Positions 37,737-64,000 of a DNA stretch of 64,000 nt are shown here, piece after piece. Below the pieces are notes generated by a model. It saw only the letters and a list, made by a program, of their open reading frames with translations. It had not been told where the DNA came from and ran no database searches. The position numbers and the translations under genes were made by a program. The DNA lies in NCBI GenBank assembly GCA_043101605.1, contig JBICIG010000060.1:5203-69202 (forward strand). Direction: 5' to 3'. How positions within the stretch are numbered: the stretch's first letter is position 1; each line of letters starts with the position of its first letter. The DNA is from Phycisphaerales bacterium JB037. Lineage in GTDB: Bacteria; Planctomycetota; Phycisphaerae; Phycisphaerales; UBA1924.

Positions 37737-37821
37737 TGCGGGTGACAGGACTCGAACCTGCACGGCCTATTCGGCCACGAGGACCTAAACCTCGCGCGTC
37801 TGCCAATTCCGCCACACCCGC
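37737..37821 (-). tRNA. tRNA-Leu (anticodon UAG), class II
   Basis: Manual fold of GCGGGTG-TG-GCGGAATTGGCAGACGC-G-CGAGG-TTTAGGT-CCTCG-TGGCCGAATAGGCCGT-GCAGG-TTCGAGT-CCTGT-CACCCGC-A. No CCA is encoded. Confidence 0.9.
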
Positions 37822-59099: not shown

Positions 59100-60659
59100 T
59101 CACGCATACCGCGACACCCGCGTCCGGATCGGGCGGTCCAGGTTCTGCACCAGGTACCGCAGCGCATCGCACGCGTGGTCCGAGCCATCCTTGATAGGCG
59201 TCATCGATTCCTTGTCGTCGGCCGGGTAGTGGTACCGCTCGATCGCCTCGATCAGCCCCGCGCACCGTTCGTGAACGAACAGCCGGGGCCCCTCCACCGC
59301 CGGGCGCAGCCGCGACCGCACCAGCCCGATGCCCTCGTCCAGCCGGAGCACGCGGTCGCGCACCTTCAGCCCCGCGCGGCGCATCTGCTCGATGTTGCTC
59401 AGGCCCGTCTGCTCGCTCCGCTGCCGACCCGCCGGATCGACCCCGACCCACGAGACCGGTCGCGCCCGCAGCGCCTCGATCGACCGCTCGAGCAGTTCGC
59501 CGGTGCGGATCATCTCGTCGGTCACCCACAGCACCCCCTCGGCATCGAGGGTGGCCCACAGCACGACCGTCGGCGAGCGGTACCCGAAGTCCATCCCCGC
59601 CACGCGCAGGTCATCCTCGCGCGCCGCCGGCTCGCGCGACACCACATGCCGACGCGCCTCGAACTCCGGGTAGACCGCGTCGGATCGACTCGGGCGGAGC
59701 GAGAGCATCTCGGCGTTCCAGGTCGCCTCGCCGACGCGTCCCTTCAGGTCCATCGCGTCGCGGACGGTGATGTGCCCGGCCCCCTGTCCGGTTGCATCTC
59801 GCTCCTTGGCCCGCCCGCCGCATTCGGGCAGCAGCGGGCAGTCTCCGCCCGCCCCGGAGCACTCGTGCGAATCGTCGCACGCCCCGAGCACATCGACGAC
59901 GCCCCACTTGAACAGCCGACGCCTCCCGGCCGACGCCTCGCGCACGATGCGGAACATCAGCCCGTGCGGGCGGTGCATGGTGCTCAGGCACTCGATGGTC
60001 CCGCGGACGAACACCCCGCCGCACTGCTTGGAGCGTGTGACGAGTTGAGCCGCCTCCCACACCTCGGGGTCGAAGAGTTCGACCTCGTCGCAGCGCAGGC
60101 GCTGGACGCGCGTGCCGCGCACGCTCGTTTCAGATTGCGCCAGCACCTCGCACGCCGACCCGTTCGCGAGCGCCACGCGCCGCTGAGTGATCCGCCCCTC
60201 GACCATGTCGCAGAACGGCTCGCGCGCAAACAACCCCGCCAGGTGCGCGTGCATCCGCCGCGACTGCTCGAGCGAGCCGCCCAGGATCCGCACCGCGATG
60301 CCCGGCTTGAAAACCAGGTCCAGCAGCGTCGCGACCGCGCCGAGAAAGGTCTTCCCCCCGCCCCGATTCGCCCACACCACGCTGTCGCGCGGGGCGCCCG
60401 CGGCATCCGAGTTCGGTCGCCACGAGCCATCGCCCGCTTTATCACCCCCAAACTCGCCGCCGCCCGGCTCCTTCCACTCCTCCTCGAAGAACGCGTGGCA
60501 GAGGTAATCAAAGGGCGAGGCGTGCCCGGCGATCAGCGCCCGCGTCGGCACCTCCAGCTCCAGATGCTCGGCCAGCCACGCGTGCAGCTCGCCCGGCGTG
60601 CGCGGGCGCGCGAGCCCGAACGAGCCCTCGCCTGCCTTCTCCGCGTCCGCCCCGCTCAC
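59100..60659 (-). CDS. terL: phage terminase large subunit-like protein, apparently intact
   Basis: GTG start in a GTGA overlap with the upstream gene. Walker A VWANRGGGKTF, Walker B RLRCDEVE, and RNaseH-like nuclease motifs AGMDFGY, VGVDPAG and DGSDHACDALRY. A Cys-rich insert reads CDDSHECSGAGGDCPLLPEC. Confidence 0.85.
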   Translation of the reverse strand: MSGADAEKAGEGSFGLARPRTPGELHAWLAEHLELEVPTRALIAGHASPFDYLCHAFFEEEWKEPGGGEFGGDKAGDGSWRPNSDAAGAPRDSVVWANRGGGKTFLGAVATLLDLVFKPGIAVRILGGSLEQSRRMHAHLAGLFAREPFCDMVEGRITQRRVALANGSACEVLAQSETSVRGTRVQRLRCDEVELFDPEVWEAAQLVTRSKQCGGVFVRGTIECLSTMHRPHGLMFRIVREASAGRRRLFKWGVVDVLGACDDSHECSGAGGDCPLLPECGGRAKERDATGQGAGHITVRDAMDLKGRVGEATWNAEMLSLRPSRSDAVYPEFEARRHVVSREPAAREDDLRVAGMDFGYRSPTVVLWATLDAEGVLWVTDEMIRTGELLERSIEALRARPVSWVGVDPAGRQRSEQTGLSNIEQMRRAGLKVRDRVLRLDEGIGLVRSRLRPAVEGPRLFVHERCAGLIEAIERYHYPADDKESMTPIKDGSDHACDALRYLVQNLDRPIRTRVSRYA

Positions 60660-60895
60660 GCGCCGCCCTCCCGGTCCGACGAGCCGCGGGATCCGCCGCC
60701 GCCCCGCCGATCGGTCGGCTCCTCGACCACGCCGAGCGCGAGCAGCAGCGCCCGCTCGCGCGGCTCGTCGAATGCGTCGAGCTTCTTGAGCACCCGTCGA
60801 CGCTCGCCCGCTGACAGAAAGAATGTCAACGGATACGGCAGCGCCGACTCGCGCGCCTCCCGCGGCACGGGCACACCACCCCGATCATCACTCAT
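60656..60895 (-). CDS. small ribbon-helix-helix-like protein (79 aa)
   Basis: Only the last 79 codons of ORF 60656..61444 are accepted (ATG at 60895, GGGGGAG upstream). YPLTFFLSAGERRRVLKKLDAFDEPRERALLLALGV has a beta-alpha-alpha pattern. Confidence 0.5.
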   Translation of the reverse strand: MSDDRGGVPVPREARESALPYPLTFFLSAGERRRVLKKLDAFDEPRERALLLALGVVEEPTDRRGGGGSRGSSDREGGA

Positions 60896-60957
60896 CCCAC
60901 TCCCCCCTCGATCAATCCTCTGGGTCGATCGGGCCACGCGACGCCGCCGCCCAATCC

Positions 60958-61638
60958 TCACCCCGCACTGTGCGCGTAGGCGACGGGCCGGGCGACCAGC
61001 GCCCCCGCCGCCCGCTGCGCGATCGCGCGTCGGCTCAACCCCGCTCGTCCCCGTGTCGCGCGCGACCGCCGGGCCCACCGCGCCAGTTCGCGTGCCAGGA
61101 ACGCGTCCCGCCACGCCCGCGCCGCCATCCGAGGCTCCATCAGCCGCCACGCCTCGACGCCGCGTCGTACGAGCGCATCGCCCAGGCGCGCGTCGTGCTC
61201 GCTCCACCCGAGCCGGTACGCGGTCATCCCGGCGCGCTCGAAGAACGGGCAGAACGCGCCCATCGACGCGACCGCCTCGGTCGCGGGCGTCAGCGGGTCT
61301 GCGAGGTAGTGCTCGACCAACCGACGCGCCACGCCCAGCCCTCGCCAGCGCGGCTCGACGATCACCCGAGACAGACACCGCACCTCCCGATTCAGCCGAC
61401 GCGCGGCGCGACGCGTGTCCCCCGAGCGATACCGCCCGGGCCATGCCAGTTCACGCCACGACCCGTTGAGCGTCGGATAGCTCGCCACCAGCACCCCAAC
61501 GAGTTCGCCCGCCTGTCCACGCGAGCCGTGCTCGCGTGCCCGCCACACGCCGGCGATCGTCGCCGGGCGTCCGCTCCGGTAGTGAAACCCGAGCAGCGCA
61601 TCGAGGTCGCGAGCCGAGCCCCGTTCGATCACGATCAT
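60958..61638 (-). CDS. GNAT-family acetyltransferase-like protein
   Basis: ATG at 61638 in an ATGA overlap with the ATPase gene. GNAT motif A reads RVIVEPRWRGLGVARRLVEHYL. Motif B-like sequence reads ASMGAFCPFFERAGM. Confidence 0.7.
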   Translation of the reverse strand: MIVIERGSARDLDALLGFHYRSGRPATIAGVWRAREHGSRGQAGELVGVLVASYPTLNGSWRELAWPGRYRSGDTRRAARRLNREVRCLSRVIVEPRWRGLGVARRLVEHYLADPLTPATEAVASMGAFCPFFERAGMTAYRLGWSEHDARLGDALVRRGVEAWRLMEPRMAARAWRDAFLARELARWARRSRATRGRAGLSRRAIAQRAAGALVARPVAYAHSAG

Positions 61639-62336
61639 GCGCGAGGCTCCCGCGTGCCGACGCATCGTTCGAGACGCACTCCGCCGCGGAGATCGACCCA
61701 TGCGCACACCTGCGGCGACAGCGCTCCGGACAGTTCCTCGCGGTTCGTCGCCGCGACCAGCCGCACGCGTCCGCGTCGCGCCCACCGGGACAGGCTCGCG
61801 CACACGCCGAGTGCTGTGACGCGATCGAGCGACGAGCCGAGTTCGTCGATCACGAGCACGGCGGTCCGGGATCGCATGCGTTCGACCATCGCCATCGCCC
61901 GCGCCAGCCGCAATCGTTGCCGCTGACCCTCGGAAAGTTCCGCGGGAGTCCGCGCCAGCAGCCCCGCCTCGCTCAACCCCGCCGCCGCGAGGATCCCGAG
62001 CACCTGCTCGGCAGAGCCCGGCACCTGATCGATCACGCGCACGCCGCGCCGCAATTCGGGCGGGCGCACGATCCTCCTCCCTTGCGCGGCGTGCTGCGCC
62101 GCGAGCGATGCGAGCAGGGTGCTCTTGCCCGCGCCGCTCGGGCCGAGGATGAGCACACGCTCTGCACCCGCCAACCCGCCGAGCAGCGCTCGGGCAAAGC
62201 GTGGCGGCGTGTGCGCCGCCGCCAACTCCTCCGGTGCCAGCCCGAAGATCGCGCACGCGCGGAGCAGGTTCTCCGAACGCCGCGTGCCCGGGGCTCGGTT
62301 CGCCGGCGAACGCGGCGTGTCGGTTCCCCCCACCAT
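61635..62336 (-). CDS. soluble ABC-type ATPase (no permease partner)
   Basis: Walker A GPSGAGKST, Q-loop IDQVPG, signature LSEGQRQRLRLARA and Walker B VLVIDELGSSLD. The H-loop position reads ATN. Confidence 0.8.
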   Translation of the reverse strand: MVGGTDTPRSPANRAPGTRRSENLLRACAIFGLAPEELAAAHTPPRFARALLGGLAGAERVLILGPSGAGKSTLLASLAAQHAAQGRRIVRPPELRRGVRVIDQVPGSAEQVLGILAAAGLSEAGLLARTPAELSEGQRQRLRLARAMAMVERMRSRTAVLVIDELGSSLDRVTALGVCASLSRWARRGRVRLVAATNREELSGALSPQVCAWVDLRGGVRLERCVGTREPRA

Positions 62337-62339
62337 CGC

Positions 62340-62849
62340 TCACGCCCGAGCCGCGTCGGCCCATCGGCCACGCTTCTCGAGGGGTAGGACGGCGCCCCGG
62401 GTCGACGCCCCGGCCTCTGCCTCGTGCTGGGCGTCGATCGCCTGGACATGTCGGCGGACGGTGTGCAGCGTCACGCCCAGTTCCTCGGCCGCCTGCCGCA
62501 TCGAGCGCCCGCACAGCACGCACGACTCGGCGACGAGCCGACGCGTCCGCGTCCACGAACTCCGCGCCAGCACCACGAAGCGGAAGCGATCGGACATCAC
62601 CCGCGTCACGACGCGGCGGAGCCGGGTGCGGACGATCCGCGGCGTCGTGCCCGCCAATGCCGCCACTTCGCGGGCGCTCCGCCCGTCGCGGTAAACCGCC
62701 TCGATGAGCGCCCGATCATCGGGAGGGAGCCACGACGCGCGATCGAGGATGGCCTCGGCCAGGTCGCGTCGACGCCGACGCCTCAGGTCCGCTGCCTGAT
62801 CCGGATCGATCCCGCCTCGCCCTGTCCCGCTCAGGCTTCGCTGACTCAT
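62340..62849 (-). CDS. regulator with two sigma-70 region-4 / LuxR-type HTH units
   Basis: ATG at 62849 follows AGGAGGAAACAGGA. HTH units are RSAREVAALAGTTPRIVRTRLRRV and RSMRQAAEELGVTLHTVRRHVQAI. Confidence 0.7.
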   Translation of the reverse strand: MSQRSLSGTGRGGIDPDQAADLRRRRRRDLAEAILDRASWLPPDDRALIEAVYRDGRSAREVAALAGTTPRIVRTRLRRVVTRVMSDRFRFVVLARSSWTRTRRLVAESCVLCGRSMRQAAEELGVTLHTVRRHVQAIDAQHEAEAGASTRGAVLPLEKRGRWADAARA

Positions 62850-62921
62850 TCCTGTTTCCTCCTGTTTCGGTTGGACTCAGAGCTGTGTTCACCGTAAAGC
62901 GGAAGTGTGTACCTATTGAAA

Positions 62922-62939
62922 ACGGCCCTGGTGGGCCGT
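62922..62939 (-). terminator. rho-independent terminator (minus strand)
   Basis: On the minus strand ACGGCCC-acca-GGGCCGT is followed by TTTTC. It lies about 50 nt after the stop at 62987. Confidence 0.6.
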
Positions 62940-63175: not shown

Positions 63176-63429
63176 AATTCACGCCCCTTGGCATTCGCAT
63201 GTGGACGGGTGTAACAAAAGCAAGAACACCTGTCGGTTGCCAGAATTCGGTGCAGGTTAGGCGCATTCTGCGTCGGACGGGTATACTCGTCGATGGCGAC
63301 CCGAGTGGTGGTATAGCCCAGCGGATGGATTCATCATCTGGCCCGAACGCATGAGGCGTTCGCGGGAACTGTTTACGGAGGAACTTCGCCGCACCGACGA
63401 GGCGGCTCGCGCTCAACTCACAACGCGCA

Positions 63430-63464
63430 GTCAAAAGCATCGAGCGCCAACTCGATGCTTTGAC
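63430..63464. other. strong hairpin (14-bp stem with one bulged A) in non-coding DNA
   Basis: GTCA(A)AAGCATCGAG-cgccaa-CTCGATGCTTTGAC. Confidence 0.6.
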
Positions 63465-63608
63465 CTAATCATCTGACCCCAGTCTCCCCACCAGGAGTAT
63501 CGCGATGGAAAACCATCGGGGGGTATCTGCTTGGCCCATGCTAATCAGAGGCCCACCAAAAGTCAACGACAGCAACTGTTCCACACACATTCCCTGACCC
63601 AAAGGGAG

Positions 63609-63632
63609 GGCCCCGGGCTGATGCCCGGGGCC
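63609..63632. other. perfect 10-bp GC hairpin 6 nt upstream of the anomalous tRNA
   Basis: GGCCCCGGGC-tgat-GCCCGGGGCC. Confidence 0.6.
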
Positions 63633-63638
63633 TCGGAT

Positions 63639-63738
63639 GCGGCTGTGGCGGAAATCGGTAGACGCGCCGGGTTTGGGGCCCGGTGGGGCAGGTGTTTCAG
63701 CCAGACGCCCCGTGCAGGTTCGATCCCTGTCAGCCGCA
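63639..63738 (+). tRNA. anomalous class-II tRNA: Leu-type body, anticodon UGG (Pro), about 30-nt variable arm
   Basis: Manual fold of GCGGCTG-TG-GCGGAAATCGGTAGACGC-G-CCGGG-TTTGGGG-CCCGG-TGGGGCAGGTGTTTCAGCCAGACGCCCCGT-GCAGG-TTCGATC-CCTGT-CAGCCGC-A. The D and T arms nearly match tRNA-Leu at 37737..37821. Stem differences are compensated. Confidence 0.6.
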
Positions 63739-63780: not shown

Positions 63781-64000
63781 ATGAGTATCTATTTGTTTAC
63801 CCGTGAGAACATCCAGCGATTCGCACCCAATGCCAAGGGGGTCTATTCGCTCCAGGATGACTTCGACATCACCTATATCGGAAGCAGCCAGGTCAGCGTC
63901 CGCGACCGGTTGCTGTCTCACTTCAACGGCTACGAAGGCCGCTGCACCCAGCAGGCCAAGTACTTCTCCGCGGAGACCTGCAGCAATCCGCTCCAGCGGG
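63781..64000 (+). CDS. GIY-YIG nuclease-domain protein, partial (runs off the right window edge)
   Basis: ATG at 63781 reads MSIYLFTRENIQRFAPNAKGVYSLQDDFDITYIGSSQVSVRDRLLSHFNGYEG... The GVY...YIG...R..L..H spacing matches the GIY-YIG N-terminal motifs. Confidence 0.7.
   Translation, partial: MSIYLFTRENIQRFAPNAKGVYSLQDDFDITYIGSSQVSVRDRLLSHFNGYEGRCTQQAKYFSAETCSNPLQR

Follow-up and report, generated by a model that had tools for sequence, protein, structure and literature searches.

A transfer RNA (tRNA) gene near the right end of a 64,000-nucleotide (nt) stretch of DNA from Phycisphaerales bacterium JB037 (contig JBICIG010000060.1, positions 5,203 to 69,202; the whole stretch is referred to here as the window) is a passenger of a transposon of the IS1595 family, and it probably serves this transposon as a decoder of its own for rare proline codons in the transposase gene. 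The gene joins a class II body of the leucine type to the proline anticodon UGG, and, judged from its sequence, the tRNA would more likely be charged with leucine than with proline. The observations behind this reading are a cloverleaf whose stems covary among relatives, a position inside terminal repeats, a family of similar tRNAs, the association of that family with transposases, and a pattern of CCA codons in the transposase genes. The tRNA gene, its parts, and the host gene with which it is compared lie at the following window positions.

63639-63738, + strand: class II Leu-type tRNA with anticodon UGG, identified by Rfam, a family covariance model, covariation, and identity to tRNA-Leu(UAG)
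63639-63645 with 63731-63737, + strand: acceptor stem GCGGCUG/CAGCCGC, 7 of 7 positions paired
63648-63665, + strand: D arm of 3 base pairs (bp), Leu type
63667-63683, + strand: anticodon arm with stem CCGGG/CCCGG
63672-63678, + strand: anticodon loop UUUGGGG, with U33 and G37
63674-63676, + strand: anticodon UGG
63684-63713, + strand: oversized variable region of 30 nt, with the same architecture in 19 distinct oversized arms and a basal stem that covaries
63685-63689 with 63707-63711, + strand: basal stem of the variable arm, 5 bp, GGGGC/GCCCC
63714-63730, + strand: T arm with a 5-bp stem, GCAGG/CCUGU
63738, + strand: discriminator A73
37737-37821, - strand: host tRNA-Leu(UAG)

The 100-nt gene forms an intact cloverleaf with 7/5 geometry in the acceptor and T stems. 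Rfam RF00005 matches it end to end (model positions 1-71) at 47.6 bits, where the gathering score is 29, and a covariance model built from its relatives scores it at 84.3 bits. A preliminary description made from the sequence alone had proposed a cloverleaf with a Leu-type class II body and a proline anticodon loop; the Rfam model, used as a check for a pseudogene or for another fold or anticodon, returns that same cloverleaf with UGG, and its alignment agrees on U33 and G37. When the extra arm is not counted, the gene is 84% identical to the host tRNA-Leu(UAG), and the differences between their stems are compensatory in the alignment, as the preliminary description had it. The features that define a tRNA-Leu body (the class II arm, A73, A15:U48, and a Leu-type D arm) are all present, the first base pair is G1:C72, and the anticodon is UGG rather than a leucine anticodon (NAG or YAA). 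The body does not match that of a tRNA-Pro, which has a variable loop of 4-5 nt, C1:G72, and G15:C48; the anticodon features of a tRNA-Pro (NGG with G35, G36, and G37, plus A73) are all there. The CCA end is not encoded. The variable region, previously put at about 30 nt, measures exactly that, as opposed to 16 nt in tRNA-Leu(UAG), and beyond its basal stem it has an A-rich bulge on the 3′ side (AGAC) followed by a 3-bp distal hairpin.

The support for this fold rests on covariation among relatives, since ARAGORN does not call the gene and the minimum-energy fold computed without constraints differs from a cloverleaf, with an unremarkable z-score of -1.2. The ARAGORN check suggested earlier thus came out negative for this gene, but the program likewise misses every relative with a variable arm of at least 27 nt (for example, at the loci designated L006, L009, L012, L081, L099, and L121), all of which are detected by covariance models. 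Genes for tRNAs with oversized arms are probably missing from many annotations.

Relatives were sought with a DNA pattern made up of a D loop of the Leu type, an anticodon loop reading YUUGGG, a spacing typical of class II, and a T loop, which found 1 match in viral contigs, 15 in a set with one genome per species, and 58 in metagenomes. Counting the window tRNA, 54 of 75 matches form intact cloverleaves (45 distinct sequences), with 7 of 7 acceptor pairs (6 of 7 in one of them) and 4-5 of 5 pairs in the T and anticodon stems. The 7/5 geometry of the window tRNA is found in all 54, and neither 8/4 nor 9/3 occurs among them. Every one of the 54 has A73, and A15 and U48 are invariant, although the pattern fixed letters of the D loop, G37, and the T loop, whose conservation is therefore partly by construction. 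The hosts belong to the Acidobacteriota, Planctomycetota, Actinomycetota, Bacteroidota, Alpha- and Deltaproteobacteria, and Binatota. In identity the window tRNA stands at 85% to the tRNA at L067, which comes from another phylum and has an identical anticodon stem, compared with 83% to the host tRNA-Leu(UAG); by sequence it is about equally close to family members in other phyla and to the host gene, from which it may or may not descend directly.

The length of the variable region is bimodal in this family, being either 13-19 nt or 27-40 nt, and the window tRNA falls in the longer class, which has 21 of the 54 members (about 40%) and 19 of the 45 distinct sequences. These long arms resemble one another in architecture and not in sequence: all are built from a 4-6 bp basal stem of the form GGGN/NCCC, an A-rich bulge on the 3′ side, and a distal hairpin. 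In the 19 distinct long-arm tRNAs, two-sided changes are seen in 16 of 25 pairs, including pairs of the variable-arm stem, and 94.9% of cells are paired, a percentage inflated by the prior filtering of the set on the acceptor, T, and anticodon stems. The filter does not create compensatory changes, however, and it was not applied to the variable-arm stem. None of 500 shuffles reaches the observed values, and slid registers are also far off. The covariation of the stems across relatives upholds the earlier claim that the fold is under selection and not in decay.

The window ends 262 nt past the tRNA, and the sequence beyond it was reached by looking up a 96-amino-acid open reading frame (ORF), which led to a 6.5-kb contig (L162) that shares an identical overlap of 342 nt with the window. 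The element revealed in this way spans 2,542 bp from its left to its right inverted repeat and contains, in order, a small conserved ORF, the tRNA (forward), two orphan ORFs, and the transposase gene (reverse).

62875-62882, no strand: left copy, ACTCAGAG, of a possible 8-bp target-site duplication, with ACTCCGAG 3′ of the right repeat as its partner
62886-62922, no strand: left terminal inverted repeat, TGTTCACCGTAAAGCGGAAGTGTGTACCTATTGAAAA, matching the reverse complement of L162 1733-1769
62987-63175, - strand: small ORF of 62 amino acids with the motif GP..E.L.I.G.W...VK..L.K..P..GWP, conserved in the transposon family
63176-63638, no strand: spacer upstream of the tRNA, in which no gene or known RNA is recognised
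63781-64000, continuing to window-equivalent 64071, + strand: orphan ORF of 96 amino acids with a weak GIY-YIG-like motif, variable cargo
L162 429-668, - strand: ORF of 79 amino acids
L162 713-1681, - strand: IS1595 transposase of 322 amino acids (PF12762, 146.8 bits; PF12760, 36.9 bits)
L162 1733-1769 (window-equivalent 65391-65427), no strand: right terminal inverted repeat, matching the left repeat at 31 of 37 positions

One pair of 37-nt inverted repeats thus encloses both the tRNA and the transposase gene. Their core, GCGGAAGTGTGTAC, has just two sites in the window and its extension, these being the two terminal repeats. Repeats of the same family, with a core like GGAAGTATGTACTT.ACGCAAA, enclose both tRNA and transposase at L012, L046, L030, L044, L082, L121, L128, L008 (where the pair is perfect over 25 nt), and L088, and a 43-nt repeat of a different sequence does so at L010. 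Insertion of IS1595-family elements duplicates 8 bp of target (ISfinder). The candidate duplication here, ACTCAGAG and ACTCCGAG, is tentative: the copies agree at 7 of 8 positions, and 3 nt separate the left one from the left repeat. The guanine-plus-cytosine (GC) content is 61% in the element compared with 71% in its flanks, and one copy is present in the 70 kb seen. The transposase has the domains DDE_Tnp_IS1595 and Zn_ribbon_IS1595 and carries the NCBI name IS1595 family transposase. Hence the earlier guess that the tRNA is mobile cargo in a stretch of lower GC holds, but the terminase cassette then offered as its context is not the carrier. Likewise, what had been called a GIY-YIG gene is the 96-amino-acid orphan ORF, extra cargo of the transposon whose score against GIY-YIG (20.6 bits) is below the cut-off of 22.6 and whose database match is confined to its own metagenome-assembled genome. 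When the search for repeats was confined to 150 nt around the tRNA, the pairs it returned were weak or misleading; the wider search supersedes it.

Homologues of the small ORF occur at L012, L046, L030, L044, L108, L014, and L073, and in at least eight elements in all; its product is acidic in the window element and basic in the relatives, and a Pfam search with it gave no match. An Rfam search of the spacer (63176-63638) returned nothing at E up to 1. Two strong hairpins lie in this spacer, one at 63607-63630 (GGGCCCCGGGC-UGAU-GCCCGGGGCC), which ends 8 nt 5′ of the tRNA, and one at 63443-63468 with a 10-bp stem; neither is followed by a U run.

The association of the tRNA with the transposase is not peculiar to the window. 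When all ORFs round the family tRNAs are compared with one another, the sole recurrent neighbour is a protein of about 320 amino acids with the Zn_ribbon_IS1595 and DDE_Tnp_IS1595 domains, to which the small ORF is to be added; besides these two, no synthetase, toxin, or integrase recurs as a partner, and no synthetase gene was found to accompany the window tRNA. Family tRNAs adjoin a transposase of this IS1595 clade at 31 loci, with the gap between the two sometimes filled by about 1 kb of unrelated cargo. The reverse search, starting from an alignment of the transposase, found relatives on 452 viral contigs, and at 80 loci fetched from these we looked for tRNAs with the family covariance model, blind to the anticodon. 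A Leu-like class II tRNA stands beside 12 of the 80 transposases, including all five closest ones. The anticodon is UGG in 8 of the 12 (mostly with A37), followed by AGG, UGC, GGA, and UUA, and in none of them is it a leucine anticodon. We therefore set aside, as the main explanation, the idea that the transposase merely targets tRNA-Leu genes; the repeats, moreover, enclose the tRNA. A further scan shows that AGG and GGG tRNAs with oversized arms also exist. The sibling tRNAs with AGG, GGG, UGC (Ala), GGA (Ser), and UUA (ochre) are found among L093/L164, L168, L166, L082, L109, and L128.

Among close relatives of the window transposase (61-69% identity), an adjacent tRNA(UGG) is present in 5 of 5 examined, so the decay in related genomes that the preliminary description had wished to see checked is not what these loci show. 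One of the five tRNAs has an oversized arm, another, at 28 bits, is a weak match of 70 nt that lacks a long arm, and a further one belongs to an element at the LexA-like site that is also occupied in the window. The five include the cultured species Algisphaera agarilytica, whose element (JACHGY010000001.1, about 320.8-322.0 kb) has an 84-nt tRNA(UGG) with G37 located 137 nt upstream of the transposase gene. Plasmid-borne relatives of the transposase, at 42% identity or less, have no tRNA.

The transposase genes themselves suggest what the tRNA may be for. CCA makes up 77 of 260 proline codons (29.6%) in 24 tRNA-linked transposases and 51 of 564 (9.0%) in 64 unlinked ones, a difference with p = 4e-13 at equal mean GC of third codon positions (GC3, 0.69), although this and the other codon statistics ignore phylogenetic relatedness. 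The A-ending codons of the other four-fold families, taken as a control, differ little (13.8% linked, 10.8% unlinked), and in the highest-GC3 class the CCA share is 25.7% as opposed to 1.8%. The excess is concentrated at three alignment columns, where CCA accounts for 11 of 11, 6 of 7, and 10 of 13 prolines while adjacent synonymous sites vary freely; in UGG-linked genes only, these columns have CCA at 27 of 29 prolines compared with 43 of 220 elsewhere (p = 5e-15). The column with 11 of 11 is the proline of (L/I)-P-x-A-C-(S/A)-D-E near codon 21, which in a check of full ORFs is CCA in every further transposase that has the motif, that of the window element included; the columns with 6 of 7 and 10 of 13 follow an I-R-x-A-M helix. 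A C-terminal Y-(R/K)-x-P motif has CCA at 7 of 9 prolines in the alignment and at 13 of 16 in the full-ORF check. Conversely, the four most conserved proline columns, including that of the zinc-ribbon C-P-x-C, have CCA at 4 of 59 prolines compared with 73 of 201 elsewhere (p = 3e-6), and the conserved prolines of the small ORF are CCA at 3 of 24 and CCG at 16 of 24. In the transposase gene linked to an AGG tRNA, which is a single element, CCT is used for 2 of 16 prolines, both at hallmark positions. The window transposase has CCA at P21 (GV[P]MACADE) and at P321 (YRQ[P]I-stop), the codon before last; CCA makes up 6 of the 27 proline codons of the window element (22%) and 6 of 408 (1.5%) in the host. 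The A. agarilytica transposase, read by eye, has CCA at all three hallmark sites.

Two further codon usages were seen at the C-terminal site. The L109 transposase has TTA (Leu) where others have CCA. Unlinked transposases (L085-L157) often end in Y-R-x-P, with a proline that is CCT in 10 of 14 cases, as opposed to 17% CCT among their proline codons; this could reflect either a nucleotide constraint at the gene end or an AGG-type tRNA supplied from elsewhere.

In the model that we favour, the transposase gene would keep CCA, which pairs with UGG and is less used than any other proline codon in GC-rich hosts, at a few fixed positions, and the tRNA of the element would read these hallmark codons in the transposase mRNA. 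The amount of transposase, and possibly also the nature of the product, would then depend on the element's own tRNA. For this the tRNA would have to be transcribed and processed, to read the hallmark codons, and to affect transposition, all of which we infer. The delivered amino acid would more likely be leucine, given that leucyl-tRNA synthetase (LeuRS) ignores the anticodon, than proline, and for the element CCA would then be a site-specific Pro-to-Leu codon, or an ambiguous one; a host in which CCA is so rare would suffer little from this. The leaning towards leucine comes from the Leu-type body, A73, and A15:U48, which are kept throughout the family. Furthermore, the sibling tRNAs with UUA, with UGC (lacking G3:U70), and with GGA (having A73) could be charged only by an enzyme that ignores the anticodon, and the avoidance of CCA at essential prolines, those of the small ORF included, is what unreliable or non-proline reading would predict. 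Class II synthetases approach a tRNA from the side of the long variable arm, so the arm may hinder prolyl-tRNA synthetase (ProRS). From these sequence features, leucine or mixed charging would seem to come ahead of pure proline charging, if not by much. It is also possible, though we put this forward tentatively, that a leucine-charged tRNA(UGG) and the fixed CCA codons of the transposase form a private pair, so that an active or regulatory form of the transposase would arise by programmed Pro-to-Leu recoding or by rare-codon gating.

Several findings weigh against this model. G35, G36, and A73 are determinants for ProRS, as known from work in E. coli; C1:G72, a hallmark of tRNA-Pro, occurs in 6 of the 45 distinct family members (the window tRNA has G1:C72); and the D loop of the window tRNA is 1 nt longer than that of the host tRNA-Leu, which could affect recognition by LeuRS. 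The hallmark columns of unlinked homologues hold Pro, Ser, Glu, or Asp, and not Leu, and none of 117 proline codons falls at a conserved-Leu column of the transposase. Leucine is therefore not "needed" at those sites, and a reassignment of CCN to leucine in the transposase, which we considered, is unsupported. The tRNA does not keep to one side or one orientation with respect to the transposase, no plus-strand promoter-like site was recognised upstream of the window tRNA, and at L053, L006, and L009 there is no transposase near the tRNA. In the L052/L034 sub-lineage a 28-nt repeat pair apparently excludes the tRNA; we now treat the pair at L052 as internal or coincidental, on a contig too short to settle the matter. 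The letters fixed in the pattern scans, the single AGG element, and the neglect of relatedness in the codon statistics belong on the same side, although neighbouring synonymous sites vary freely, which points to saturation of such sites. The tRNA at L053 (1342-1437 of the 852-kb metagenome contig BNJS01000721.1) is an 82-nt class II tRNA(UGG) that shares its acceptor stem with the window tRNA and is flanked by an AcrB-like gene and trigger factor with no transposase in view, and this chromosomal, housekeeping-like setting is unexplained by the transposon model.

The alternative that deserves most attention, although we think it unlikely, is that the gene encodes a harmless extra tRNA-Pro, charged by ProRS through G35, G36, and A73 and acting as a plain CCA decoder for an element of lower GC, in the manner of phage-encoded tRNAs. 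The predominance of proline anticodons (UGG, AGG, and GGG) in the family also counts against our model and fits this alternative, as do the six members with C1:G72, the CCA share of 22% in the element compared with 1.5% in the host, the presence of proline at the hallmark columns of unlinked homologues, and the lack of proline codons at conserved-Leu columns. It leaves unexplained, however, why a Leu-type class II body with A15:U48, and not an ordinary tRNA-Pro, is retained across phyla, and why the best-conserved prolines shun CCA (4 of 59, compared with 73 of 201). Nor does it sit well with siblings in the same elements that carry UUA, UGC, or GGA, or with a long arm on the side from which, by structural knowledge, a class II synthetase would approach. 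An improbable possibility, in line with the preliminary suggestion that the tRNA could be leucylated and decode CCN as Leu, is that it is a general Pro-to-Leu mistranslator, either a proteome-wide generator of stress or diversity or a toxin-like addiction module, with the link to the transposase reflecting co-transport. The Leu-type body and the blindness of LeuRS to the anticodon would allow this. There is precedent in allo-tRNAs, which insert Ser at Leu codons and kill E. coli (PMC5389517), and which are also tied to mobile DNA and toxin-antitoxin loci. But a general mistranslator predicts neither position-specific CCA in the transposase nor the CCT match in the AGG-linked element, and the partners that recur are the transposase and the small ORF, with no toxin-antitoxin pair among them.

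It is worth considering, too, that the gene may not act in translation at all and may instead be a tRNA-shaped RNA or DNA element that signals the processing or stability of the element's transcripts, serves the transposase as landmark or target, or draws off tRNA-targeting enzymes as a decoy. We regard this as a shade less probable still than mistranslation at large. The variable side and orientation relative to the transposase, the variable DNA immediately 3′ of the tRNA, and the repeats at L052/L034 that apparently exclude it would all fit such an element, and some allo-tRNA relatives are translationally inactive (PMC5389517). Yet the anticodon is kept even where the stems have fully diverged, and it matches codons of the partner gene; A15, U48, the T loop, and A73 are kept as well (the T loop and part of the D loop being forced by the patterns), and the repeats enclose the tRNA in at least 10 elements, that of the window included. 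Hardly credible, finally, is a decaying duplicate of the host tRNA-Leu(UAG), that is, a pseudogene whose anticodon was altered by a point mutation and whose variable arm gained an insertion. The 84% identity to that gene, the single transition that separates UAG from UGG, and the silence of ARAGORN might be taken to suggest one, but the data already contradict it: the stems are all perfect and their differences compensatory, the same design recurs with covariation in many phyla, the gene lies inside a foreign transposon of 61% GC, and its sequence is no closer to the host gene than to family members elsewhere.

It is informative to set the window family beside other natural tRNAs whose body and anticodon disagree. 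The allo-tRNAs (Mukai et al. 2017, Nucleic Acids Res., PMC5389517) have a long variable arm and a mismatch of anticodon and body, act as missense or nonsense suppressors in E. coli, and are common in Acidobacteria and soil metagenomes, where they lie near transposon-related genes and toxin-antitoxin loci; their acceptor and T stems are 8/4 or 9/3, their identity is mostly Ser (with G73) or Ala, and their anticodons are scattered across 35 codons (PMC5389517). The window family shares the mismatched anticodon, the long arm, an occurrence in soil bacteria, and a linkage to transposons. It differs in its 7/5 geometry, its Leu type (A73, A15:U48), its mostly proline anticodons, and its tie to one clade of IS1595-family transposases with matching codons. 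Two plasmid loci, L159 (Methylobacterium oryzae) and L160 (Roseomonas marmotae), have IS1595 transposases of about 40% identity followed by a hypothetical gene and a VapC/PIN toxin; they have no tRNA, and they recall the toxin-antitoxin neighbourhoods reported for allo-tRNAs. The nev-tRNAs of nematodes described by Hamashima and colleagues are reportedly class II, Leu-type tRNAs with Gly or Ile anticodons that LeuRS charges with leucine, and so resemble the window family in joining such a body to a foreign anticodon. Unlike the window family, they are said to be eukaryotic nuclear genes, away from transposons and without proline anticodons, and we know of no partner gene with codons coupled to them.

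The tRNAProX/ProA of Streptomyces, which has a Pro body with an Ala, Thr, or Asn anticodon and a dedicated ProRSx (PMC11415595), is likewise a natural bacterial tRNA in which body and anticodon specify different amino acids. Its mismatch is the reverse of that in the window tRNA, and it has a synthetase of its own, whereas none stands beside the window tRNA. The nearest analogy may be the bldA tRNA-Leu(UAA) of Streptomyces, a chromosomal and correctly charged tRNA that controls many genes through rare TTA codons. There, too, a very rare codon in a GC-rich host ties translation to one tRNA, but in the window element a single transposon carries both the tRNA and its presumed target gene, and the identity of the tRNA is mismatched. 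As for the carrier, ISfinder marks with "+" the IS1595 subgroups whose insertion sequences have passenger genes, and the window element is like them in its DDE transposase with an N-terminal zinc ribbon, its terminal repeats, and its extra genes; the tentative 8-bp duplication would be a further likeness. It differs in having a tRNA as cargo. In a literature search that did not cover all journals, we found no report of an IS1595-family element with a tRNA, nor of class II tRNAs with proline anticodons. The tRNA would thus be a variant of the known tRNAs with mismatched body and anticodon, while its coupling to a transposase gene, if confirmed, would be new in kind.

Mismatched tRNAs of this sort are rare natural exceptions to the fixed genetic code and mostly lack a known purpose. 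The window tRNA has a concrete genetic partner, an IS1595 transposase with the matching rare codon at fixed sites, and this partner gene provides a purpose that can be tested directly, namely element-specific decoding or recoding, with A. agarilytica as a cultured organism that carries a related element and can be used for the purpose. If the private pair proves true, it would be a self-contained, mobile, and gene-specific deviation from the code that has spread across many bacterial phyla. These elements also show that insertion sequences are able to carry components of translation, and that an entire class of tRNA genes, those whose variable arms measure 27-40 nt, escapes standard tRNA finders. 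Within the area of tRNA engineering, a natural Leu-type scaffold with a large and tolerant variable arm is potentially useful.

The transposon is inserted between a terminase-like cassette and a LexA-like gene. The cassette comprises the following.

59100-62849, - strand: four-gene cassette with a sigma-70 region-4-like helix-turn-helix (HTH) gene, a P-loop ATPase, an ORF of about 250 amino acids, and a terminase-like gene
59100-60659, - strand: terminase-large-subunit-like ORF, the last of these four

Homologues number 1,936 at an E cut-off of 1e-10. Related Phycisphaerales have the cassette in one copy and in the same gene order, adjoining the gene for a LexA-like repressor with no tRNA there; the tRNA therefore lies in a variable insertion and not in a prophage. 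The cassette looks like a domesticated, phage-derived module rather than a prophage, and we discarded a prophage as the carrier of the tRNA, the cassette being a conserved single-copy chromosomal module and the tRNA lying inside the IS1595-family transposon. Past the transposase, L162 continues with LexA-like, Metallophos, MarR, and UbiA genes, as in the relatives. Two relatives have the flanking genes and lack the element; an alignment of the empty site with relatives involves sequences too diverged to inform. In two Joint Genome Institute (JGI) metagenomes (L171/L172, from 3300033049 and 3300029226), a related element, with a transposase 69% identical to that of the window and an 87-nt tRNA(UGG) having A37 and U73, lies between the LexA-like gene and the HTH/terminase-like cassette, and this shared site reflects either an old shared insertion or a preferred target.

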